A stretch of 32,000 bases of DNA, taken from contig CAVUGN010000011.1 in the NCBI GenBank assembly GCA_963741095.1, forward strand, positions 9,326-41,325, read 5' to 3'. The translations under genes were made by a program, and so were the position numbers. This document shows, piece after piece, positions 1,958-32,000 of the stretch; positions within the stretch are counted from its first letter, which is position 1; each line of letters begins with the position of its first letter. Under the pieces are notes generated by a model that saw only the letters and a list, made by a program, of their open reading frames with translations, was not told the DNA's origin and searched no databases. The DNA comes from an uncultured Candidatus Micrarchaeota archaeon. Its GTDB lineage: Archaea > Micrarchaeota > Micrarchaeia > Micrarchaeales > Micrarchaeaceae.

Positions 1958-2007
1958 CATTTACGCTAAGACGGGAACAGAATTGTACTAACCCATATTG
2001 CGGTAAT

Positions 2008-2613
2008 TTGATGGAATTCGAATTTGATAGTAAAAATTTAAAGTTCGATAAAGTGCTCTCTGAGTTAGATAAGCTCGTACTAGATTTTGTAAGCCTTCTG
2101 ACTCTTTCCAAGATCAAGTATGTGCTAGTTAGCGGTTATGTGGCAATCCTTTTAGGCAGAACCAGAACAACTGAAGACATAGATCTTTTTATAGAAAAAG
2201 TGGATATGTGGCCTTTTACTGAGTTCTTCAATTTGCTAGAAAAACACAACTATTGGGTAATAAATTCAGATTCATGCGAAGACGCATTCGATATGCTCAA
2301 CAGCGCACTGTCTATTAGAATAGCAAAAAAGGGCGATGCAGTACCAAATTTTGAAGTTAAGTTTGCAAAAAAAGACATAGATTTCCTATCTTTGAACAAC
2401 CCGCTTAAAGTTACCTTGAATAATCACAAGCTACTGATGTCCCCCCTGGAGATACAAATACCTTTCAAAATATACTTGGGGAGCGAAAAGGATATAGAGG
2501 ATGCAACACACATATATGAACTGTTCAAAGAAAAACTTGACAAAAAACTAATGGAAAATATCGCAAATAAACTGAAAGTAAAAGAAATGATGATAGAATA
2601 TGGAATGCTCTAA
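2008..2613 (+). CDS. Nucleotidyltransferase-fold protein (AbiEii/DUF6036-like minimal NTase)
   Basis: The motif VSGYVAILLGRTRTTEDIDLFI fits the G-x...R-x-T-x-D-I-D-L pattern of Pol-beta-superfamily NTases. It lies in an AT-rich islet next to tRNA-His. Confidence 0.45.
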   Translation: MMEFEFDSKNLKFDKVLSELDKLVLDFVSLLTLSKIKYVLVSGYVAILLGRTRTTEDIDLFIEKVDMWPFTEFFNLLEKHNYWVINSDSCEDAFDMLNSALSIRIAKKGDAVPNFEVKFAKKDIDFLSLNNPLKVTLNNHKLLMSPLEIQIPFKIYLGSEKDIEDATHIYELFKEKLDKKLMENIANKLKVKEMMIEYGML

Positions 2614-2839
2614 ACGTGATACAAAAGAAAGGCTAAATTTTGTCCGATTTTGGGCAGACTACGTTAAACACGCGCCGAACGACGTATGGTCAAAACAGCA
2701 GAATGTACTAATAAATTCTGTAATGAAATCTGCAAGCCAAGACGTTATATTGTACTTAAAAGTAAAAAAATCTGTAGCGGCTTCAATCAGAACGCTAAAT
2801 CGCTTATCAAAGGCCCAGTCAAAACATATCATTCCCTAA
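2600..2839 (+). CDS. Hypothetical small protein overlapping the NTase gene end
   Basis: 79-aa ORF with a 14-nt overlap with 2008..2613 and the same AT-rich composition. No motif recognised. Confidence 0.3.
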   Translation: MECSKRDTKERLNFVRFWADYVKHAPNDVWSKQQNVLINSVMKSASQDVILYLKVKKSVAASIRTLNRLSKAQSKHIIP

Positions 2840-2887
2840 TCCTGCTGAAGATGAAGCATAATTATAAGTATTATTTACCCCGATTCA

Positions 2888-3574
2888 ATGAACATGGCCT
2901 TCACACTTCGGACTCAAAATGAGCGCGTGCATAATGTGCGCCTTATTGCTTCCGACTGGAGCGGTGTGATAAGCGACGACAGGCGGCCGGTGTACGAATC
3001 GAACATGCGGTTGTTTGAAGCGCATGGGAAAACCCGCGTCCCTTTCGAAAAATGGCTGCCAGAGACGACGCTGACGCCAATAGAATCTTTTGCAAAGCAT
3101 GGAATCACTGGTGATCCGAAAACGCTCTTCGATGAGTACAGGAGCGCCTATGCGAAAGTGAAAAGCGAAGGGCTGAATCCTAAAGCGTACCCTGATTCGA
3201 AGACGGTACTGAAATTCCTATTCGACATCGGATTTCCCGTGGTCGTCATAAGCAGCCATCCGAGCGAGCATCTTATGGACGAGGCTTTGGAGTACGGCGT
3301 AAAGGGCTACATACGGTCATTCCTGGGGAATGTTAACGACAAAACGAGCGGGCTTTTGAGGGTCTGCCTCGGAATAGGCGAAAAACCCACCGATGCCATA
3401 TATCTTGGTGATACTGTTTACGACATCCGGGCAGCAAAGAAAGCCGGAGTGCATTCTGTCGGCGTGGCTACCGGCTATCATACTAAGGAAAGGCTAGTAG
3501 ATGAAAATCCAGACTTCGTAGTGGACTCATTGACAGAATTCCAGAATACGATCACCAAATTTTTGAGAAGATAG
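2888..3574 (+). CDS. HAD-superfamily hydrolase (phosphatase, PGP/Gph-like)
   Basis: HAD motifs occur in order: IASDWSGVISDD (motif I variant), VVVISSHP (motif II), K-x...GDTVYDIRAAKKAG (motifs III/IV). Confidence 0.75.
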   Translation: MNMAFTLRTQNERVHNVRLIASDWSGVISDDRRPVYESNMRLFEAHGKTRVPFEKWLPETTLTPIESFAKHGITGDPKTLFDEYRSAYAKVKSEGLNPKAYPDSKTVLKFLFDIGFPVVVISSHPSEHLMDEALEYGVKGYIRSFLGNVNDKTSGLLRVCLGIGEKPTDAIYLGDTVYDIRAAKKAGVHSVGVATGYHTKERLVDENPDFVVDSLTEFQNTITKFLRR

Positions 3575-24015: not shown

Positions 24016-24091
24016 GGGGAGCTACGCTAACCTGGCAGACCATCAGCCTTGGGCGCTGACAATCGGAGTTCAAATCTCCGGCTCCCCACCA
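24016..24091 (+). tRNA. tRNA-Pro (UGG) with encoded CCA; integration target
   Basis: Acceptor GGGGAGC 24016-24022 / GCTCCCC 24081-24087. The anticodon stem is TCAGC/GCTGA with loop CTTGGGC (TGG at 24050-24052). The T arm is CGGAG-TTCAAAT-CTCCG (24064-24080), followed by A24088 and CCA 24089-24091. The D stem pairs poorly in every register I tried, which lowers confidence. Confidence 0.7.
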
Positions 24092-24210
24092 GGAAAATTA
24101 TCGACGACAAAATTCGCCTTTTCGACGTATGTTGGAGATGTGGACTGTATTCAACAAAACTACATGTAAATCTGGTATAGTTCCAGGTATAGTCTTGAGT
24201 ATAGCTTATA

Positions 24211-24471
24211 TTATTTCCTATACTCATAATGGCTCACGGCCTTGCCGTACCTGCTACTTATGTTCTTTGAGATGTAATCAGCGACATCTAACGGCTCCTT
24301 GCCGTCCGTGAACCTGGCCTTGACCACGAATCCGCAGTCGCCTTCGGTCAGTAGGACCTCCTTGACGGACTCGAACATCATCAGCTTCTCTGCGATCCCG
24401 CCGGCGTCTGCGTTCTCTTTTGGCCTTACGAAATAGAGCCCGTACATCGCGCCTATTCTCTTTTTACCCAT
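24211..24471 (-). CDS. Stand-alone RAM (Lrp/AsnC ligand-binding) domain-like protein, 86 aa
   Basis: LYFVRPKENADAGGIAEKLMMFESVKEVLLTEGDCGFVVKARF fits the beta-alpha-beta-beta-alpha-beta RAM pattern (compare xVxxVxxVTGxYDxxxxV). It is nucleotide-identical to 29420..29680. Confidence 0.6.
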   Translation of the reverse strand: MGKKRIGAMYGLYFVRPKENADAGGIAEKLMMFESVKEVLLTEGDCGFVVKARFTDGKEPLDVADYISKNISSRYGKAVSHYEYRK

Positions 24472-24486
24472 GTCAATCCACCATAA

Positions 24487-24627
24487 TCATAATCGGTCTA
24501 TATCAAGCAACTTGACGAACACGCTGTGGCATCTGTCGCATTCCTCGATCACGAACCTGCCGTTCACCACCCGCTTGCACACCAGCCTTCCTGTTCTGCA
24601 CCTGCTGCATGCAACGCCGCCGTTCAT
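24487..24627 (-). CDS. 46-aa zinc-ribbon protein (not in the ORF track)
   Basis: Hand translation gives MNGGVACSRCRTGRLVCKRVVNGRFVIEECDRCHSVFVKLLDIDRL, with CxxC...CxxC. Its ATG overlaps the upstream stop (ATGA at 24624-24627). It is conserved as a 47-aa version in copy 2. Confidence 0.6.
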   Translation of the reverse strand: MNGGVACSRCRTGRLVCKRVVNGRFVIEECDRCHSVFVKLLDIDRL

Positions 24628-24893
24628 CCCTCGATCACCTTACCGTATTCACCGTCCAGTCCTTTCGATATGTACGCGGCAGCGTCCTTGGGTTCAGCAC
24701 CGACGAAAAACTTCACCTTCGCCAGGAACACGCCCTTGTTTTCCATCAAGTTGACTGCCTTCACGCGCTTTAGGGCAAGGAGCCTTTCCGCAAGACGTTC
24801 GCTGACACCGCTCTTCGAATTCCCGAAGTAGAGACGGTGCCAAACCGCATGGCTCGCGCTAACCCTTGTTATTTTTCCACCCGTATTACACAC
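24624..24893 (-). CDS. Stand-alone RAM-domain-like protein, 89 aa (paralogue of the 86-aa protein)
   Basis: RLYFGNSKSGVSERLAERLLALKRVKAVNLMENKGVFLAKVKF has the same pattern as the 86-aa protein. It has a GTG start and differs from copy 2 at 9 aa. Confidence 0.55.
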   Translation of the reverse strand: MCNTGGKITRVSASHAVWHRLYFGNSKSGVSERLAERLLALKRVKAVNLMENKGVFLAKVKFFVGAEPKDAAAYISKGLDGEYGKVIEG

Positions 24894-24939
24894 CCACTTA
24901 TTTGCTTACTTTTACATCATCCTGACAAACATGAAAATA

Positions 24940-25140
24940 TCATCTGGACGCTAAAACAGCCCGCGCGGATCCGGATCCGTCAAGCAGCATAACCGACCTT
25001 CCGGTCCTTTCCAGCTCGCACGCGTTAATGTGCCAAAGATATGCGACTGGATTCTCATGCTCCATACCGCACATCCAGCACTGGTATGCATTATCGTGCC
25101 CTCCCAAAAAGATATCTTTTATTCTTGTTCCCATGCCCAT
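24940..25140 (-). CDS. C2HC (C2H2-like) zinc-finger protein, 66 aa
   Basis: YQCWMCGMEHENPVAYLWHINAC gives C-x2-C-x12-H-x3-C, the classical zinc-finger spacing. It is the first gene of the micro-operon. Confidence 0.55.
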   Translation of the reverse strand: MGMGTRIKDIFLGGHDNAYQCWMCGMEHENPVAYLWHINACELERTGRSVMLLDGSGSARAVLASR

Positions 25141-25265
25141 TCTACCACCCCATCAATCATGAGGGTAGGGGGTTGCACCGCGGAAGCATGGTGATAATGT
25201 GGAGGACGAGCTTGCGCTGATCCGTAGAAAATTCTTACTTCCACCCCTGTACAACCTACACACCC
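25141..25265 (-). promoter_or_regulatory. Conserved 125-nt non-coding leader of the micro-operon (candidate structured RNA)
   Basis: By eye there are only 5 substitutions versus 30350-30474, so it is better conserved than the adjacent zinc-finger CDS. There is no ORF. Nested complementary segments and a GCAA-capped hairpin are possible on the minus-strand transcript. Confidence 0.35.
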
Positions 25266-25413
25266 ATATGATATTATGAACTTTGTTGTATATATAAGCA
25301 GCCTCGGTTTTTAAGCTGAAGAAACTATAAAAATTGCTATTTTTGTTTAATATTTTTCCAGTTATTCAAATATCATATACTGTATAATTAGGAATATAGA
25401 GGAGATTAGTAAA

Positions 25414-25423
25414 GTATAAATAT
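25414..25423 (+). promoter_or_regulatory. TATA box for the double-Lrp gene
   Basis: gtATAAATATc is centred ~28 nt upstream of ATG 25446. The same ATAAATATC core sits ~26 nt upstream of the paralogue start (30617-30625). Confidence 0.4.
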
Positions 25424-25445
25424 CTGGCTCTATACAATATTATAT

Positions 25446-26867
25446 ATGAAAGAGATACCTTTTGAGGCAAACAAGGAGCTCGAGCGCCTCAAGAAAGAGT
25501 ACAAAGCGTACCTTTACGTCAGGATCATAGACGGAAAGTTCTATGTCTACAAAGGGAGCTCAATTTGGGATAAAGAAACTAAGAAGGTGAGGGGGCTTAC
25601 CGAGTATCTAGGACGGATAGATGAAAACGGGAAGTTCATAAAGAAGATTTCTAACAAAAAAAAGATCCCGATACAGACGCTCGTTCAAGGAACTGCTCCG
25701 CAAGCCATCCAAACGCTGGTCGACCAGTCTGAGATAAAATTATTGAGAATCCTGAGCATGAATGCAAAGGCAGATTTGTCTTTTCTCGGAAAGAAGTTTC
25801 TAGGGATCAACTCTTCCGCAACATTCTACAAAGTAAGGCAGCTGAAGGAGAGATATGGCATAAAGGGTATTGCTGAAATAGATGTTACGAAGCTTGGCTA
25901 CACTGACTATATAGCTTTTGTGAAATTCGAGGGCGACAAGCCAAGCGCGGATAACATAAGGAAGGCCACTTTGGACGAAAGCCAGGTGCAACTAGTGCTT
26001 GCTACCAACGGCGAATATGACTTAATAATATACTTCTTAGCCAAGGATAATTTCGATGCATCGGAATTCATATTCAATTTGAGGTACAAGGAGCATCTGA
26101 AGACATGTATATCACAATGGTATTTCTCTCCCATTGACATATGTTATAACTTTATTCCATTAAGAGACCAGTTTTTCGAGCTGATGAAAGAAAAAGTATG
26201 GGTAAAGAGCAGGGAAAGTCAACGCAGATTGGAGGGGCAGCTCACCATCAAGGAGTACAATATACTAAGGGAATTGAACAGAAATGGTGTCGCAAAGTTC
26301 TCAGAAATGGACAAGAAACACGGGCTGGGCGGGGAAGAAACCGCATACATCTACGAAAAGCTTATTGAGAGAGGTATACTCAAGAGGATGACAGTAAGTC
26401 TTCAGAAAATACCTTTGCAATATAACGCAGTAATCATAATGGGTGTGGTTGACAACAATGGCTTCAGGCGGACTAGAGACAGGCTGCTGATGGATGTAAT
26501 AGAGGAGAACGGTACGCCTATCAACAAGTATTCTGTAATGGGAAACATAGGAAACCCTGATGGCGTCATGTTTATAATGCCGATAACTCCGAACAACAGG
26601 CTCGATGTATTCGAAAGTGAGTTCAAGGAGAGGATAAAAGGTGTGGCACTTAGAACTCTCATAGTCACTGACGTGCTCGTTGGTTCATTATGTTACAGGA
26701 AGTTTGACAACGCAAAGTCTAGGCAATACCGGGCACTGCGGATGGAGGGCAATACAGAGCTATCATTAGCCGATGTAGACTACGATGAAACAGTTAGAAG
26801 GAAGCAAGTTATCAAGAAAGGTGAGGATACAATAGAAGAACTACTCGCCAATAATGAAAATATATAA
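25446..26867 (+). CDS. Tandem Lrp/AsnC-like protein: N-terminal basic hairpin motif plus two HTH+RAM modules
   Basis: Module 1 is EIKLLRILSMNAKADLSFLGKKFLGINSSATFYKVRQLKERYGI (HTH), then YTDYIAFVKFEG...VQLVLATNGEYDLIIYF (RAM). Module 2 is EYNILRELNRNGVAKFSEM...YIYEKLIERGIL (HTH), then YNAVIIMGVVD...VMGNIGNPDGVMFIM (RAM). The N-terminus reads YLYVRIIDGKFYVYKGSSIWDKETKKVRGLTEYLGRI. Confidence 0.6.
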   Translation: MKEIPFEANKELERLKKEYKAYLYVRIIDGKFYVYKGSSIWDKETKKVRGLTEYLGRIDENGKFIKKISNKKKIPIQTLVQGTAPQAIQTLVDQSEIKLLRILSMNAKADLSFLGKKFLGINSSATFYKVRQLKERYGIKGIAEIDVTKLGYTDYIAFVKFEGDKPSADNIRKATLDESQVQLVLATNGEYDLIIYFLAKDNFDASEFIFNLRYKEHLKTCISQWYFSPIDICYNFIPLRDQFFELMKEKVWVKSRESQRRLEGQLTIKEYNILRELNRNGVAKFSEMDKKHGLGGEETAYIYEKLIERGILKRMTVSLQKIPLQYNAVIIMGVVDNNGFRRTRDRLLMDVIEENGTPINKYSVMGNIGNPDGVMFIMPITPNNRLDVFESEFKERIKGVALRTLIVTDVLVGSLCYRKFDNAKSRQYRALRMEGNTELSLADVDYDETVRRKQVIKKGEDTIEELLANNENI

Positions 26868-27030
26868 TGCAGGAATAGAATGCAATAACTACTGATGTAT
26901 CTTACAGAAATTAGCTAATTAAACTACCCTCCTGGTCCTTCCATATCTTCACCTGTCCAAACATCTCTGAAAAGGCTTAAATAGCTTGTGTCCGTTTGAA
27001 ATGGGCCAGCGCGAATGCTCGTATAAACAA

Positions 27031-27056
27031 CATCGAACCACGTCGGGCGATGTTGT
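27031..27056 (+). repeat. Cassette-boundary repeat, copy D (short, degenerate)
   Basis: CATCGAACCACGTCGGGCGATGTTGT aligns with the 5' part of copies A-C. It can form an AACATCG/CGATGTT hairpin. Confidence 0.5.
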
Positions 27057-27119
27057 ATAATTGTCTTCATCACGGTGCATAGATAAGTATTTATACTTAT
27101 TCTACATAATATACTTAAT

Positions 27120-27350
27120 GTGATGAAGATGACAAACATGACACTGGCCCTGCCGGAAGCGCTCACTGAGATAATGAAACGGCACAAGGACATAAAATGG
27201 AGCGAGGTGGCCCGCGAGGCCATCTGGGACAAGGCGAGGAAGCTGGAGCTCATGGACAAGATCCTCTCCAAGAGCGAATTGACCGAAAAGGACGCGTTGG
27301 CGATAGGCGCGAAGATAAACGAAGCCGTAGCTAAGAGGCATGGGTTATAA
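27120..27350 (+). CDS. vapB: Ribbon-helix-helix antitoxin (VapB-like)
   Basis: MTLALPEALTEIMKRH...WSEVAREAI is a CopG/RHH-type N-terminus. It overlaps the PIN gene by 11 nt. The ATG at 27123 is an alternative start. Confidence 0.65.
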   Translation: MMKMTNMTLALPEALTEIMKRHKDIKWSEVAREAIWDKARKLELMDKILSKSELTEKDALAIGAKINEAVAKRHGL

Positions 27351-27759
27351 CGTGATCCTGGTCGTGGACGCCAATGTGGTGATTGCCGCATTGGTAAAGA
27401 ATGGCAAAGTGCGTGAGATCCTGCTTAGCGACAAGTTCAAGTTCGTCGCACCTGATTTCGTGAAAGAGGAGACTCTGAAATACCTCGATCTAATAAAACA
27501 AAAGTCGGGACTTGCGAAAGACGACCTGGACCTGCTCATAACCCTACTGTTCCAAGAGATAGAAACCATACCCAGAAGCGAGTATCAATCGCAACTTCCC
27601 AAAGCCGAAAGGATGATAAAAAATGATGTAAAGGATGCACCATACGTTGCATGCTACCTGGCGCTGAAATGCGACGGGATCTGGACGAACGACTCGGACT
27701 ATGATGGAAAACCAGAACTGAAAGTGTTCAAAACAGAATACCTTCTGAAATTATTGTAA
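27340..27759 (+). CDS. vapC: PIN-domain toxin (VapC-like)
   Basis: LVVDANVVIAALV (first Asp), FVKEETLKYL (Glu), DAPYVACYLAL (Asp) and WTNDSDY (Asp) are the four acidic PIN residues, in order. Confidence 0.75.
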   Translation: MGYNVILVVDANVVIAALVKNGKVREILLSDKFKFVAPDFVKEETLKYLDLIKQKSGLAKDDLDLLITLLFQEIETIPRSEYQSQLPKAERMIKNDVKDAPYVACYLALKCDGIWTNDSDYDGKPELKVFKTEYLLKLL

Positions 27760-27780
27760 TCCACAACCTTTAGACTTGGG

Positions 27781-27854
27781 CATCGTCGAACCATGTTGAA
27801 CCACGTCGAACGACGTCGTTTCCCAATTGCACTTTTACGACGAAGAACCGGCTC
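27781..27854 (+). repeat. Cassette-boundary repeat, copy A (full length, degenerate att-like end)
   Basis: The sequence is CATCGTCGAACCATGTTGAACCACGTCGAACGACGTCGTTTCCCAATTGCACTTTTACGACGAAGAACCGGCTC. It shares both halves with copy C, including the terminal CCGGCTC of the att core. Confidence 0.7.
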
Positions 27855-27865
27855 GCGTCGTGCTA

Positions 27866-28186
27866 CTAGATCTCCAAACCCTCTTTGAGAGCGGCACTGA
27901 CCAAAGTGATACCTTTTGCCTCCCTCTCGAACTCATTTTTGGTGTAGCTTAAGAAATCCACGGGATAGTCTATCCCCTGCGATACGTGCCATTCCAAAAG
28001 GAGCTTGCTGATCAGCTTCTTTACGGGTTTCCTGATCACAACCAGAAGGTCCACATCGCTGTCCTTCTTTGCCTCGCCTCTTGCCGAAGAACCGAAGAGT
28101 ATGATCCGCTCTATTCCGTACGGCTTGGCGACGCTCTCCTTGAAGCCTTTTATCGTTTTTATCAATTGAGGATTGACCTTACCCAT
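27866..28186 (-). CDS. Minimal nucleotidyltransferase (MNT) of a HEPN/MNT pair
   Basis: ILFGSSARGEAKKDSDVDLLVV is the GSxxRG...DxD NTase motif. It overlaps the HEPN gene by 25 nt. Confidence 0.8.
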   Translation of the reverse strand: MGKVNPQLIKTIKGFKESVAKPYGIERIILFGSSARGEAKKDSDVDLLVVIRKPVKKLISKLLLEWHVSQGIDYPVDFLSYTKNEFEREAKGITLVSAALKEGLEI

Positions 28187-28584
28187 TCCAAAACACCTTC
28201 ACACTTTTCAATCACGTCCTTTGCTTCATCTTCCGAAACGGACCTTGTTACTGGATAGCGCGTATCCACGTAATACTCGGTAAGATCGGCACAATAATTA
28301 ACTATCTCTGCAGTTGCCTTAATGCTTTGGGCGAGCTTCACGAGGTCATGCGTCCTGTCAAATCGGCTCAACTTCTCTATCTGTGCAGCTTTCAACGCCT
28401 TCTCCGCTACCTGCTGGGCATAAAAGGATGCGTCCTTGAGCCTCTCGCTTTCATAGAGAAGCTTTGCAGTCACGAGATTGTCCTCGGCTTCTTTTATCCA
28501 CACTCGTGCATCATCTTTCATGTCCTCATAAGAATTTGCCTTAAAAACCTTAATAATGTTTGCAGTTGGGCCACATTCATCCAA
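28162..28584 (-). CDS. HEPN-domain protein of a HEPN/MNT pair
   Basis: AKLLYESERLKDASFYAQQVAEKALKAAQ, THDLVKLA and YYVDTRYP (the R-x4-6-H-type HEPN region). The likely true start is ATG 28521. Confidence 0.75.
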   Translation of the reverse strand: MDECGPTANIIKVFKANSYEDMKDDARVWIKEAEDNLVTAKLLYESERLKDASFYAQQVAEKALKAAQIEKLSRFDRTHDLVKLAQSIKATAEIVNYCADLTEYYVDTRYPVTRSVSEDEAKDVIEKCEGVLEWVRSILN

Positions 28585-28654
28585 AATATTTGAATATGTG
28601 TTTTTTTTAAGTGAGTCTTATTCCTTCGTAATGACTCCTAACTCGAAACACAAA

Positions 28655-28696
28655 CATCGTCGAACCACTTCGAACACCGTCGTTTCCCAATTGCAC
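28655..28696 (+). repeat. Cassette-boundary repeat, copy B (5' half only)
   Basis: CATCGTCGAACCACTTCGAACACCGTCGTTTCCCAATTGCAC matches copy A except for the 9-nt internal duplication in A. It diverges after TTGCAC. Confidence 0.7.
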
Positions 28697-28746
28697 CGCC
28701 AAAGTACCACACCATAAGAAATATAAAGCAGAAATGCACAATATTA

Positions 28747-28995
28747 GTGATAAAGATGGAAATGGAAGTGTACGGATTCAAAGCCAAGATAACCAAGGAA
28801 GGTAAGTATCTCATAGGCGAGATACCGGAGCTGCATGTAGCTGATCAGGCCAAGACCCTGAAGGAACTCGAGAGCGAACTCAAGGATGCGGTAAGCCTAG
28901 TTGTAAATCTTATCCTGGACAATCCAAAAGATGCAGCCAAGAACTTCGGTAACGGTGTCATAAGAAAGCTGAGCGTTCAGGTAATCCGCGCATAG
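28747..28995 (+). CDS. hicB: HicB-like antitoxin
   Basis: YGFKAKITKEGKYLIGEIPELHVADQAKTLKELESELKDAV fits the HicB/UPF0150 N-terminal fold pattern. It lies immediately upstream of hicA. The probable start is ATG 28756. Confidence 0.6.
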   Translation: MIKMEMEVYGFKAKITKEGKYLIGEIPELHVADQAKTLKELESELKDAVSLVVNLILDNPKDAAKNFGNGVIRKLSVQVIRA

Positions 28996-29003
28996 GTGTA
29001 TCC

Positions 29004-29225
29004 ATGTCGCGGTTACGCCCGCTGAAAAGTCCTCTCCTCATAAAGGTGCTGCAGAAATACTACGGCTACAACGCACGCTCTGGAAGCGGCAGGCATATAG
29101 TTTTGCAGGACTCGGATGGTCATACGACTGTGATCCAGCTTAACATGGAACTCGGCAAAGGCATCCTGAAGAAGATACTAAATCAAACTGATTTGAAGTG
29201 GAAAGAAATAGAGAAGTACCTCTAA
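29004..29225 (+). CDS. hicA: HicA-like mRNA interferase toxin
   Basis: LIKVLQKYYGYNARSGSGRHIVLQDSDGHTTVIQLNMELGKGILKKILNQTDL follows the HicA pattern (GF..x..GSH...P.H..l..G.l..Il). Confidence 0.7.
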   Translation: MSRLRPLKSPLLIKVLQKYYGYNARSGSGRHIVLQDSDGHTTVIQLNMELGKGILKKILNQTDLKWKEIEKYL

Positions 29226-29229
29226 ATGA

Positions 29230-29300
29230 CATCGTCGAACCACGTCGACCAACGATGTTTCTCAATCACACTTTTACGTCGAAGGACCGGCTCCCCACCA
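29230..29300 (+). repeat. Cassette-boundary repeat, copy C, fused to the duplicated att core
   Basis: CATCGTCGAACCACGTCGACCAACGATGTTTCTCAATCACACTTTTACGTCGAAGGACCGGCTCCCCACCA. It starts 5 nt after the hicA stop, and its last 14 nt equal the tRNA-Pro 3' end. Confidence 0.75.
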
Positions 29301-29419
29301 GGAAAATTATCGACGACAAAATTCGTCTTTTCGATGGATGTTGGAGATGTGGACTGTATTCAACAAAACTACATGTAAATCTGGTATAGTTCCAGGTATA
29401 GTCTTGAGTATAGCCTATA

Positions 29420-29680
29420 TTATTTCCTATACTCATAATGGCTCACGGCCTTGCCGTACCTGCTACTTATGTTCTTTGAGATGTAATCAGCGACATCTAA
29501 CGGCTCCTTGCCGTCCGTGAACCTGGCCTTGACCACGAATCCGCAGTCGCCTTCGGTCAGTAGGACCTCCTTGACGGACTCGAACATCATCAGCTTCTCT
29601 GCGATCCCGCCGGCGTCTGCGTTCTCTTTTGGCCTTACGAAATAGAGCCCGTACATCGCGCCTATTCTCTTTTTACCCAT
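29420..29680 (-). CDS. Stand-alone RAM-domain-like protein, 86 aa (copy 2)
   Basis: The protein is identical to 24211..24471. Confidence 0.6.
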   Translation of the reverse strand: MGKKRIGAMYGLYFVRPKENADAGGIAEKLMMFESVKEVLLTEGDCGFVVKARFTDGKEPLDVADYISKNISSRYGKAVSHYEYRK

Positions 29681-29695
29681 GTCAATCCACCATAA

Positions 29696-29839
29696 TCATA
29701 ATCGGTCTATATCAAGCAACTTGACGAACACGCTGTGGCATCTGTCACACTCCTCGATCACGAACCTGCCGTTCACCACACGCTTGCATACCAGCCTTCC
29801 TGTTCTGCACCTACTGCATGCAACTCCCTCGCTGTTCAT
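29696..29839 (-). CDS. 47-aa zinc-ribbon protein (copy 2, not in the ORF track)
   Basis: Hand translation gives MNSEGVACSRCRTGRLVCKRVVNGRFVIEECDRCHSVFVKLLDIDRL. It has the same ATGA overlap with the upstream gene. Confidence 0.6.
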   Translation of the reverse strand: MNSEGVACSRCRTGRLVCKRVVNGRFVIEECDRCHSVFVKLLDIDRL

Positions 29840-30105
29840 CCCTCGATCACCGTTCCGTAGTCGCCGTCCAGTCCTTTCGATATGTACGCGGTAGCGTCCT
29901 TGGGTTCAGCACCGACGAAAAACTTCACCTTCGCCAGGAACACGCCCTTGTTTTCCATCAGGTTGACTGCCTTCACGCGCTTCAGTGCAAGCAGCCTGTC
30001 TGCAAGGCGCTCGCTGACACGGCTCTTTGGATTCCCGAAGTAGAACCGGTGCCAAACAGCATGGCTCGCGCTGACACTTGTTACTTTTCCACCCGTATTA
30101 CACAC
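29836..30105 (-). CDS. Stand-alone RAM-domain-like protein, 89 aa (copy 2)
   Basis: It differs at 9 of 89 aa from 24624..24893. Confidence 0.55.
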   Translation of the reverse strand: MCNTGGKVTSVSASHAVWHRFYFGNPKSRVSERLADRLLALKRVKAVNLMENKGVFLAKVKFFVGAEPKDATAYISKGLDGDYGTVIEG

Positions 30106-30151
30106 CCACTTCTCTTGCTTTCTTTACCTCATTCTGACAAACATGAAGACA

Positions 30152-30349
30152 TCATCTGGATGCGGAAACAGCCCGCATTCCTAACTCGCCAAGCAGCATC
30201 ACCGGCCTGCCGGTCCTTTCCAACTCGCAGGCGTTTATGTGCCACAGATATGCAACTGGATTCTCATGCTCCATTCCGCACATCCAGCACTGGTACATAT
30301 TATCGTGCCCTCCAAAGAAGATATCCTTTATCCTTGTTCCCATGCCCAT
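30152..30349 (-). CDS. C2HC zinc-finger protein, 65 aa (copy 2)
   Basis: The zinc-finger core is identical to copy 1. The C-terminal ~15 aa diverge, with a 1-codon indel. Confidence 0.55.
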   Translation of the reverse strand: MGMGTRIKDIFFGGHDNMYQCWMCGMEHENPVAYLWHINACELERTGRPVMLLGELGMRAVSASR

Positions 30350-30646
30350 TCTACCATCCTATCAATCATAAGGGTAGGGGGTTGCACCGCGGAAGCATGG
30401 TGATAATGTGGAGGACGAGCTTGCGCTAATCCATAGAAAATTCTTACTTCCACCCCTGTACAACCTACACACCCGTATAGTATCGCGTCATATCCGGTAT
30501 TTATTAGATACAGAAGACAGGGCGGTAGTATTGATAAAGCGAAAACATTAAAACATATAAATTTATCATTAAGCGCTCAATCTTCAATTGTTATACATTA
30601 AGGATTTAACAAAAGGAATAAATATCCTCTTATTTGATATAACTAC

Positions 30647-32000
30647 ATGCAAGACGTTCCACCACAGATATCTGCTGCTTTCGAGAAAGTGAAGAAGACG
30701 TACCCGTTCTATGTCTCGCTGAAGAGGATATACGGAAAATATTACGTATACAAAGTGAAGGTCGTCTGGGACCGACTAACCAAAAAGACAAAAACAAATT
30801 CTGAGTACTTGGGCCGGATAACCAGCGATGGGAAATATAAAAAGAAGAGCATCACACCGAATGATTACCTGAGAAAGGCCGAGGCACTCATCGCTTCCAA
30901 AGGTGGGAAGATAACGTGGGACGGAATTGAGAAAGTCCGGGGTGCAAACGAGCAGATTAAAGAGGAACAGATCGAGGAAACTGTTGCCGACGAATTGGAA
31001 ACGAAGATACTGACTATATTGAGTATGAACGGCCGCGCGTCGATACCTTTCATAAGCAAGATGGTTGGTCTTAGCAATGCTACAACAGATTATCACGTAA
31101 AGAAGATCGAAGAGAAATACGGCATCAGATATTTTCCAGAGATAGACGTAGACAAATTAGGTTATGCCAGCTTTATGATATCCATAAAATTTGAAGATGA
31201 GGTTCCGAGTGCAGAAGAGATTAAAAGAGAGCTTAGCAAATTTCCTGGAGTACAACTTGCAATGGTAACTCATGGTAGATATGACCTAATAATTCATTTT
31301 GTAACCGGGACCGAATATATGCCAAATAGTTATGGATGGGCATCTCAGAATGAAATATATGACCTCCAAAATAATGCTTTTAGAGCAAACAAGGCAAAAT
31401 GGTACGTGTCAACGTTTTACAGAACATATGGATGCGTACCGTTGAGAAACGAATTTTTTGATATGATGAAGAAAATAGTGTGGGAAAAAAGCAAAGAGAG
31501 CAGGAGACCTAAGCCAAATCAACTTCTTCCTAGGGAGTATTTCGTACTAAAAGAACTAAACTTAGATGGTAGGTGCGAATTCACAGAAATAGACAATAGA
31601 TGCAATTTTGATAGGGGTAGATCAGATTACACCTATAAAAGATTAGTTGAAAATAAAACAATAAAACGCATCACGTTGACAATGCAGAAACCTCCGGTAA
31701 AGTATGTGGCAATAATCTATATGGATTTTATAAAAAGAGATGAGTTTTCAAAGAGCAGAGTGAATCTTTTATTAGACATAATAGAGCGGCGAACACAAAT
31801 AAACAAATACGCACTTGTTGGCGATGCGAGCATTCCATATGGTGGATTCTTCATACTGCCGATAACTCAAGATGGGCTACTAGAAAAAGTCACCGAGCAA
31901 TTAAAGAGCATAAGCGGCACAAACGTATACGCTCTTGTTGCAAGCGAGATAGTCTTAGGTAGCCTTTGTTATAGATTATTTGATAACGCATACTCAAGCC
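30647..32000 (+). CDS. Tandem Lrp/AsnC-like protein, divergent paralogue of 25446..26867 (3' end beyond the window)
   Basis: It is not in the ORF track because no stop is reached. Hand translation from ATG 30647 stays open to nt 32000. It has the same N-terminal motif (YGKYYVYKVKVVWDRLTKKTKTNSEYLGRI), two HTH+RAM modules (ILTILSMNGRASIPF...; VTHGRYDLIIHF; EYFVLKELNLDGRCEF...) and the conserved LGSLCYRLFDNA near the end. Confidence 0.65.
   Translation, partial: MQDVPPQISAAFEKVKKTYPFYVSLKRIYGKYYVYKVKVVWDRLTKKTKTNSEYLGRITSDGKYKKKSITPNDYLRKAEALIASKGGKITWDGIEKVRGANEQIKEEQIEETVADELETKILTILSMNGRASIPFISKMVGLSNATTDYHVKKIEEKYGIRYFPEIDVDKLGYASFMISIKFEDEVPSAEEIKRELSKFPGVQLAMVTHGRYDLIIHFVTGTEYMPNSYGWASQNEIYDLQNNAFRANKAKWYVSTFYRTYGCVPLRNEFFDMMKKIVWEKSKESRRPKPNQLLPREYFVLKELNLDGRCEFTEIDNRCNFDRGRSDYTYKRLVENKTIKRITLTMQKPPVKYVAIIYMDFIKRDEFSKSRVNLLLDIIERRTQINKYALVGDASIPYGGFFILPITQDGLLEKVTEQLKSISGTNVYALVASEIVLGSLCYRLFDNAYSS

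Follow-up and report, generated by a model that had tools for sequence, protein, structure and literature searches.

The locus described here raises the question of what is done by an archaeal protein that carries two Lrp/AsnC-type modules on a single chain, and of why strongly diverged copies of its gene lie in closely similar flanking DNA. Lrp/AsnC is the most abundant regulator family of archaea, and its biology is built on symmetric homodimers and near-palindromic sites. In the 32,000-nucleotide (nt) stretch of a Candidatus Micrarchaeota contig that was analysed (CAVUGN010000011.1; the whole stretch is called the window below), an ATG-initiated open reading frame (ORF) at 25446–26867 on the plus strand encodes a product of 473 amino acids (aa), here named A473. 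An earlier reading made from the letters alone (the sequence-only reading) had taken this product for a fusion of two helix-turn-helix (HTH) plus RAM units with a distinctive N-terminus, and had placed a paralogue at 30647; both genes are present in the ORF list and translate as described. The evidence set out below indicates that A473 is probably a covalent pseudo-dimeric transcription regulator that binds DNA, a single chain standing in for both partners of the Lrp "dimer".

Two Lrp/AsnC-type modules and a basic domain in one chain

A473 consists of an N-terminal domain, a linker, two Lrp/AsnC-type modules and a C-terminal helical tail. Its structure was predicted with AlphaFold2 (AF2) from an alignment of 24 sequences (pLDDT 85.3, pTM 0.73), and five residues (Y54, G56, G62, R240 and R418) were invariant among the 24 aligned homologues. 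The second copy, B498, has the same architecture. Its first 451 codons occupy 30647–32000 on the plus strand, where the gene leaves the window, and its full length of 498 aa was read from contigs that are identical to the window (L015/L016). Contigs from the same ENA study cover positions 24078–32000 at 100% identity.

Module 1 (residues 92–238, encoded at 25719–26159, plus strand) comprises a winged HTH (wHTH, residues 92–150) and a RAM domain (151–238). In the AF2 model these appear as a three-helix wHTH at 94–137, a wing strand and a beta-alpha-beta-beta-alpha-beta fold at 153–235. Comparison of the family profile with the PDB matched module 1 to PH1519/FL11 (E 2e-15), LrpA (1e-11) and AsnC (2e-8). 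The alignment with FL11 started in the HTH and continued through the RAM signature GxYD, which is kept in module 1 (G189, D192) and aligned with GDYD of FL11. The NCBIfam models LysM and LrpA matched residues 92–213, LysM with an E-value of 4e-12 and a score below its cut-off, and the Pfam model AsnC_trans_reg (PF01037) gave a weak match to residues 159–213 (E 0.017). These profile alignments place module 1 among the genuine Lrp proteins of the regulator type.

Module 2 (residues 266–415, encoded at 26241–26690, plus strand) is strongly diverged. It comprises a wHTH at 266–322 and a RAM-like beta-alpha-beta-beta-alpha-beta region at 323–415, for which the model gives a three-helix wHTH at 268–308 and the six-element fold at 326–412, followed by the helical tail. 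Its HTH (HTH2) aligned with that of module 1 (HTH1) at E 1.2e-4 by hhalign, and Pfam MarR matched residues 266–315 at E 0.0014, which makes HTH2 weakly recognisable from sequence. Profile comparison detected no sequence similarity between the second RAM domain (RAM2) and the first (RAM1), and RAM2 was seen only in the AF2 fold and in a two-module Foldseek alignment to the enzyme NirDL. The claim of two full HTH plus RAM units therefore holds in the predicted structure, whereas by sequence module 1 alone is canonical. The motif LGSLCYR-FDNA, which had been picked out as common to the two paralogues, corresponds to LGSLCYRKFDN in the 24-homologue alignment, where it is conserved (G413, R418, D421). 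In B498, residues 115–156 reached 23.7 bits with Pfam HTH_24 (cut-off 21.9), the sole curated Pfam or NCBIfam model passed by that protein, and 23.6 bits with HTH_AsnC-type (cut-off 27).

A Foldseek search of the PDB with the A473 model returned NirDL (4ch7/4czc) as its top match (E 3.6e-12, 359 columns). The target-normalised TM-score was 0.64 and the identity 13–14%, and the root-mean-square deviation was 12 Å, so that the relative placement of the domains is just roughly similar. The next matches were single-module Lrp/AsnC regulators, each over about 137 columns with target-normalised TM-scores of 0.65–0.75. Fused two-ferredoxin barrels (chlorite dismutase and PenE) were also matched over about 300 columns, which is consistent with RAM1 and RAM2 packing together in the model. 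NirDL of Hydrogenobacter thermophilus (4CZC) contains two duplicated, fused ferredoxin-like domains per chain and is an AsnC homologue (PMC4835899). The covalent pseudo-dimer suggested earlier is thus borne out by the two complete wHTH plus beta-alpha-beta-beta-alpha-beta modules of the AF2 model and by a best match that is itself a double fusion. It is not an unprecedented architecture, since NirDL already has it, though as an enzyme.

These structural matches, together with the fact that AsnC-like proteins have become enzymes (PMC4835899), bring up the reading that A473 is a NirDL/AhbAB-type siroheme decarboxylase, or another ligand-binding alpha+beta-barrel enzyme with a regulator-like fold. 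We hold this to be most improbable. The NCBIfam model for AhbA (NF040708) matched B498 only, at E 0.1 with 12.3 bits (cut-off 140). AhbA/B (4czd) was reached at E 0.26, the regulator FL11 at 2e-15. Neither the window nor any of the 8 contexts inspected showed tetrapyrrole or heme d1 genes, and the extra basic domain and the basic HTH1 point to nucleic-acid binding.

The basic domain comprises residues 1–66 (25446–25643, plus strand), with a helix at 6–18 and strands at 22–28, 31–42 and 47–58; folded alone by AF2, these residues gave a confident alpha + beta3 structure (pLDDT 84.9). The linker that follows (residues 69–90, 25650–25715, plus strand) is disordered (pLDDT <50) and of variable length in the alignment. 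The mean net charge of the domain is +8.2 across the family (range +5 to +13). The N-terminal motif noted earlier in the two paralogues proved to be family-wide: Y-V...GK-YVY...WDK-KK...YLGRI is conserved, and Y54, G56 and G62 within this domain are among the invariant residues. The domain had no match in Pfam and no sequence match in the PDB, and Foldseek gave nothing significant against the PDB (best E 0.18) or against BFVD (best E 0.049); we therefore regard it as an orphan. A fold of the AP2/Arm type found in integrase DNA-binding domains was considered and is unsupported, the best Foldseek matches being the DHX9 dsRBD, SSB and ribosomal S17 (E 0.18–0.5).

When 1.84 billion representative proteins (clusters at 50% identity) were scanned with a profile of the domain, 755 matched at E<=1e-3, 202 of them at E<=1e-10. 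The best 150 of the 755 were proteins of this architecture or short fragments, and among them the domain is confined to this architecture. A word-indexed search with the same profile returned two fragments only. When 175 family proteins were surveyed, the order N-terminal domain, module 1, module 2 was found in 125, and the others were short or N-terminally truncated forms of the same modules; two of the 175 had an extra copy of a module, and a transposase or any other domain was seen in none. The resemblance to the N-termini of IS-family transposases, raised tentatively in the sequence-only reading, thus found no support in Pfam, in the best 150 profile matches or in the architecture survey, and the link was dropped. 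In two proteins (P0013 and P0164) an apparent second copy of the N-terminal domain lies inside the linker, and five others (P0108, P0116, P0121, P0131 and P0137) likewise have two matched stretches. Such second copies suggest that the domain is an independent, repeatable module.

A conserved basic C-terminal tail, Y-x-E-T-G-R-x-K-K...D-I-R-G-L, was observed in B498, in the related protein F470b and in P0009, P0016 and P0020; A473 does not have it.

The conserved upstream block, its micro-operon and the proposed mode of action

Upstream of A473 and B498 lie two direct repeats, at 24078–25265 and 29287–30474. Each contains the last 14 nt of a tRNA-Pro, which form an attachment site (att)-like core, then a left-end motif and a minus-strand micro-operon. 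Aligned as 24078–25269 and 29287–30478, the two blocks are 93.4% identical over 1,196 nt and are composed of sub-blocks at 99%, 89% and 92% identity. The earlier description of the adjacent micro-operon as nearly identical thus agrees with the overall figure and is slightly overstated for the mid-block, as the sub-block values indicate.

The micro-operon contains three genes, all on the minus strand. The RAM-domain-like s86 (86 aa, 24211–24471) has an identical protein in the second copy (29420–29680). Its paralogue s89 (89 aa, 24624–24893; second copy 29836–30105) was matched at E 1e-36 by a hidden Markov model built from s86. The third gene, s66 (66 aa, 24940–25140; second copy 30152–30349), encodes a zinc-finger-like protein of 65–66 aa with the pattern C-x2-C-x12-H-x4-C, whose spacing resembles that of a C2H2 zinc finger and which had no match in Pfam, PHROG or PADLOC. 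An additional ORF of 46–47 aa is called between s86 and s89 in contig annotations.

When the s86/s89 family profile was compared with the PDB, the 13 best matches were RAM domains of Lrp/AsnC proteins or stand-alone RAM proteins, the latter including 2zbc, 2djw, 2e1a and 2cvi; the six best had E-values of 2e-3 to 7e-3 and the others were weaker, up to 0.2. By hhalign s86 was aligned with RAM1 of A473 at E 1.6e-4, and Pfam PF01037 matched s86/s89 weakly (E 0.038). L001 and L005 also have an s86 homologue (49% identity in L001) that lies upstream of the family member and divergent from it, so that this arrangement was seen in three lineages, that of the window included. In the lineage of the window, s66 is the first gene divergent from A473 and from every other gene of its family (the P473 family), and it stands beside the A473, B498, C459, D470, E441 and F470b units.

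A473 and B498 share 36% identity over 454 aa, end to end (BLASTP E 4e-91), and the best segment shared by their genes at the DNA level is just 55 nt long (74.5% identity), which agrees with the earlier view that the paralogues keep their architecture and have lost nucleotide similarity. Synonymous sites are saturated at this protein identity, and dN/dS was computed on the micro-operon genes instead. It was 0.19 for s89 and 0.06 for s66 between the two copies, s86 being identical. The micro-operon genes are under purifying selection, which is strong in the case of s66.

The identity between the two upstream regions falls sharply at about 25265 and 30474, some 180 nt before both start codons, and the divergent segment therefore takes in the promoter region. 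The diverged AT-rich promoter/operator region of A473 at 25266–25445 is thus part of the variable segment, and its B498 counterpart is 30475–30646.

The smallest DNA-binding unit of Lrp is the dimer, which binds imperfect palindromes of 13–17 bp (PMC2995911). For A473, the model predicts packing of RAM1 against RAM2 within one chain, so that one polypeptide would replace the usual homodimer. A canonical HTH1 and a diverged HTH2 would then read an asymmetric operator rather than the imperfect palindrome of an Lrp dimer, and the basic N-terminal domain, held on a flexible linker, may provide a third contact with nucleic acid. The canonical effector-site signature is kept in RAM1 only. The likeliest targets would be the protein's own diverged upstream region and the divergent micro-operon. 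FL11 and the RAM-only protein DM1 form a hetero-octamer in vitro (PMC2995911), and s86 and s89 might similarly join or cap the RAM assembly of A473.

In one related contig (L014, 12896–14913), s66-like and s89-like genes stand beside F470b and are followed immediately by prephenate dehydratase and Asp/Glu racemase genes. These neighbours possibly connect the module with the metabolism of amino acids, which is the classical theme of Lrp.

Variable cassettes in a tRNA-Pro-linked array

The repeated frame begins at a tRNA gene. The tRNA-Pro(TGG) at 24016–24091 (plus strand; ARAGORN and Rfam) lies directly left of the micro-operon block of A473, and the conserved block starts exactly inside its 3' end. 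The last 14 nt of the tRNA gene, CCGGCTCCCCACCA, are repeated at 29287–29300 and before each micro-operon block in related contigs. They are accompanied at 24078–24108 and 29287–29317 by a 25-nt left-end motif, GGAAAATTATCGACGACAAAATTCG. The core plus left-end pattern occurred exactly twice in the window and was found before the micro-operon blocks of the L012–L018 contigs. These recurrences look like att scars left when elements integrated in tandem at the tRNA. ORFs of 56–66 aa run antisense over the tRNA-Pro 3' end and over the repeat (24027–24227 and 29266–29436, minus strand) and are probably spurious; in elements of the SSV type, an N-terminal fragment of the integrase gene overlaps the att site.

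The A473 gene is followed by a second conserved element, an AT-rich 3' flank block of 212 nt at 26930–27141, which matched the sequence downstream of B498 in L013, L015, L016 and L017 at 98%. The block recurs 34–63 nt past the stop codons of A473, B498 and C459, where for C459 the distance is 34 nt to the counterpart of window position 26938, and the variable cassette therefore has a defined right boundary. The variable segments have 38–40% GC, as against 50–51% in the frame and the chromosome. Gene and promoter together thus form an AT-richer variable cassette of roughly 1.7 kb inside a conserved frame.

Three toxin-antitoxin (TA) cassettes, identified by Pfam, follow in the window: RHH/PIN (27120–27759, plus strand), NTase/HEPN (27866–28584, minus strand) and HicB/HicA (28747–29225, plus strand). 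They are separated by direct repeats of about 60 nt (CATCGTCGAACCAcGTCGAAC..CGTCGTTTCCCAATTGCAC) at 27795–27854, 28659–28718 and 29234–29293. Two copies of this repeat end in the tRNA-Pro 3' fragment, and the layout resembles a cassette array. As single-stranded DNA, the repeats had folding energies that did not differ from those of shuffled sequence (z −0.39 to +0.75), with no attC-like hairpin.

A 574,611-nt contig matches this region of the window at 99.9%. Read in the orientation of the window, its array begins at the contig end with a micro-operon block and A473, and continues with the three TA cassettes, core and micro-operon, B498, a 65-aa zinc-finger gene, C459, the same three TA cassettes, core and micro-operon, D470, a tyrosine recombinase and other genes. 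The recombinase, which is 248 aa long and lies outside the window, matched the XerA/XerC/D models over their catalytic half only, and scored E 0.0011 and 18 bits with the integron-integrase model (cut-off 265). A reading of the cassette array as an integron is thus not supported, given the missing attC-like hairpins and a recombinase that fits only a catalytic half and gives a negligible IntI match.

Other assemblies add E441 and F470b, which brings the subfamily types to at least six. The six types are 30–40% identical to one another, and each is 100% conserved between assemblies. For each, closer relatives occur in other metagenomes, which share 55% identity with B498, 58% with E441, 60% with F470b and 42% with A473. 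Because relatives in other organisms are closer than those in the same array, the types are ancient subfamilies and not recent, fast-diverging duplicates. The occurrence of members of ancient subfamilies in a recently shared, tRNA-linked, repeated frame is more surprising than the protein itself. The residues of the recognition helix differ among the six paralogues, and these differences, together with the private upstream regions, would fit regulator-operator pairs of distinct specificity. The sequence-only reading had likened the pattern to that of specificity or immunity determinants. The copies may have such a role: the pattern itself was confirmed and goes further than proposed, with a variable segment that includes the promoter, sharp flanks and at least six types. 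However, the copies are ancient and not fast-diverging recent duplicates, and the distant homologues lie in housekeeping contexts.

The array also gives rise to a special case of the regulator model, close to the sequence-only reading, in which the P473-family gene is the immunity-type repressor of small, integrase-less integrative units bounded by the 14-nt tRNA-Pro core, and the regulator gene with its private operator is the specificity region of the unit. An att-like core and left-end motif stand before every micro-operon block, and the same core and right-end repeat bound units of different content (in L018, E441 with radical-SAM and peptidase genes). The tyrosine-recombinase gene at the far end of the array, the sharply bounded variable segment with its promoter and its low GC content, the occupation of one frame by six ancient subfamilies, and strain-to-strain mosaicism, of which a 5'-truncated A473 in L004 is an example, are all in keeping with such units. 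However, searches of IMG/VR, INPHARED phages and PLSDB plasmids returned no relatives, and a virus or plasmid origin was rejected on this ground. The units carry TA pairs and small proteins only, without genes for replication, packaging or transfer, the recombinase fits only half of the Xer models, and unequal crossing-over with gene conversion could equally yield the repeats. Distant homologues are mostly single genes amid housekeeping genes; flanking direct repeats or tRNA adjacency as a family-wide trait were absent in L001–L010. On balance we consider this special case unlikely.

Still more doubtful, in our judgement, is the broader proposal that the P473-family gene with its private promoter is the exchangeable specificity cassette of an undescribed small archaeal integrative unit, which would have a tRNA-derived core and no integrase of its own and would accumulate in tandem at tRNA-Pro, the protein acting either as an immunity repressor or as a DNA-architectural recombination factor.

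The second of these roles can also be proposed by itself. The P473-family protein would then be an architectural or accessory factor of recombination that bends or wraps DNA at the repeated ends, for example a directionality or synapsis factor for the cassettes or, at its most extreme, a recombinase of a new type. Proteins of the Lrp type are known to wrap DNA as architectural factors (PMC2995911), all att-bounded units share the P473-family gene and s66 but no other gene, and the units themselves have no integrase. Against this, no recombinase catalytic motif or fold was found in A473, for which the Foldseek and profile searches gave only Lrp/AsnC-like proteins, and members in other archaea are unlinked to repeats, tRNAs or integrases. 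We regard such a role as very unlikely.

The reading of A473 as a single-chain pseudo-dimeric regulator has itself to be set against several observations, all of which weigh on the other side. The nearest two-module structure belongs to an enzyme rather than to a regulator, and A473 falls under the Pfam and NCBIfam cut-offs for every Lrp/HTH model. RAM2 and the predicted intramolecular packing of RAM1 against RAM2 depend on one AF2 model made from 24 sequences. We infer DNA binding, asymmetric recognition, the partnership with RAM-only proteins and the targets from the fold, the family and the neighbouring genes. The AT-rich intergenic regions yielded no convincing operator repeats, but only AT-rich ones of low complexity. 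An s86-like partner is absent beside the homologues in L002, L003, L007, L010 and L020, and the s66 zinc-finger gene is lineage-specific. Finally, frequent tandem paralogues, fragments and pseudogenes, together with the att-bounded array, are not what a plain regulator of metabolism usually shows.

The locus is also a place of rearrangement. In L004 (7633–10047; ENA contig_122658), an insert stands in place of the micro-operon and the opening ~140 codons of A473, which leaves a 5'-truncated gene of 346 aa (P0001). The insert carries genes for nitroreductase, peptidase S58 and DUF2268 and is preceded by an att-like remnant, and DUF2268 genes are also found near family members in L001 and L018. 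The 5'-truncated A473, together with frameshifted copies and module fragments, marks the locus as a recombination hot spot. Elsewhere in the window, positions 2001–3000 have 37.5% GC in a chromosome of ~51% GC and adjoin a tRNA-His (1886–1958).

Range of the family and comparison with known systems

A word-indexed search gave 28 homologues of about 440–500 aa, which, where the source names them, are called "DNA-binding Lrp family transcriptional regulator". The family comprises more than 200 clusters at 50% identity. Every gene context inspected was archaeal, as judged by markers such as RFC in the window, Nop with PCNA, eIF-1A, eIF-2beta and RIO1, FtsZ, MCM, and ribosomal S24e/S27e. In a single-protein scan of reference genomes the family was found in one Candidatus Micrarchaeota metagenome-assembled genome only (phylum Microcaldota, kingdom Nanobdellati, DPANN group), so the taxonomic range is poorly sampled. 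Scans with PHROGs and PADLOC gave generic HTH matches only, and literature keyword searches found no paper on the family or its N-terminal domain. The proteins are already filed under Lrp by automated annotation; we see in them the Lrp/AsnC regulator fold in a fixed single-chain tandem with an orphan third domain.

In several organisms, intact members have beside them family fragments, copies with frameshifts or a tandem paralogue that is shorter at its N-terminus (L003, 2301–2633; L010, 6435–7640; L012, 11386–12785; L014, 7618–9052; L018, 6360–6746). These remains suggest frequent birth and decay of family copies.

If A473 and its relatives are regulators as proposed, the family would provide a natural example of how the Lrp fold reads an asymmetric site, and the regulator role would give a first function to an undescribed domain that is present in hundreds of archaeal protein clusters. 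The array would offer a concrete system for the exchange of regulators and operators, and possibly for the accretion of accessory DNA in small archaeal genomes. To our knowledge, no mobile elements have been described in the small archaeal genomes concerned; should the doubtful specificity-cassette proposal be true, it would mean a new mobile-element logic in small-genome (DPANN-like) archaea.

Three known systems, and one group of small proteins, invite comparison. In heteroimmune temperate (lambdoid) phages, the repressor and its operators are swapped inside near-identical flanking DNA. Like these immunity regions, the locus has a regulator gene that, with its own upstream region, forms a sharply bounded, divergent segment between near-identical flanks. 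Unlike them, it has no phage or plasmid genes, and several "alleles" stand in tandem on one chromosome.

NirDL (4CH7/4CZC) shares with A473 the single-chain fusion of two Lrp/AsnC-like modules in a broadly similar arrangement; in NirDL these HTH plus ferredoxin-like modules build an alpha+beta barrel within the chain (PMC4835899). It is, however, an enzyme of heme d1/heme biosynthesis, with about 310 residues in the solved structure and without the N-terminal basic domain, whereas A473 shows neither membership of the NirDL/AhbAB group at the sequence level nor a tetrapyrrole gene context.

The archaeal Lrp/AsnC (FFRP) regulators, such as FL11/PH1519, LrpA and Sulfolobus LysM, share with module 1 the AsnC-type wHTH, the RAM domain and GxYD. 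They are homodimers of chains of ~150 aa, whereas A473 places two non-identical modules on one chain of 473 aa, adds a 66-aa basic N-terminal domain, a disordered linker and a C-terminal helical tail, and has in module 2 a RAM domain that has diverged past sequence recognition. The demi-FFRPs (DM1 of P. horikoshii, STS042 and TvDM) would be the counterparts of the micro-operon products, s86 and s89 resembling stand-alone RAM proteins weakly (E around 1e-3). The pair of DM1 and FL11 would be the precedent for a partnership of s86 and s89 with A473, which we infer from their neighbourhood in three lineages.

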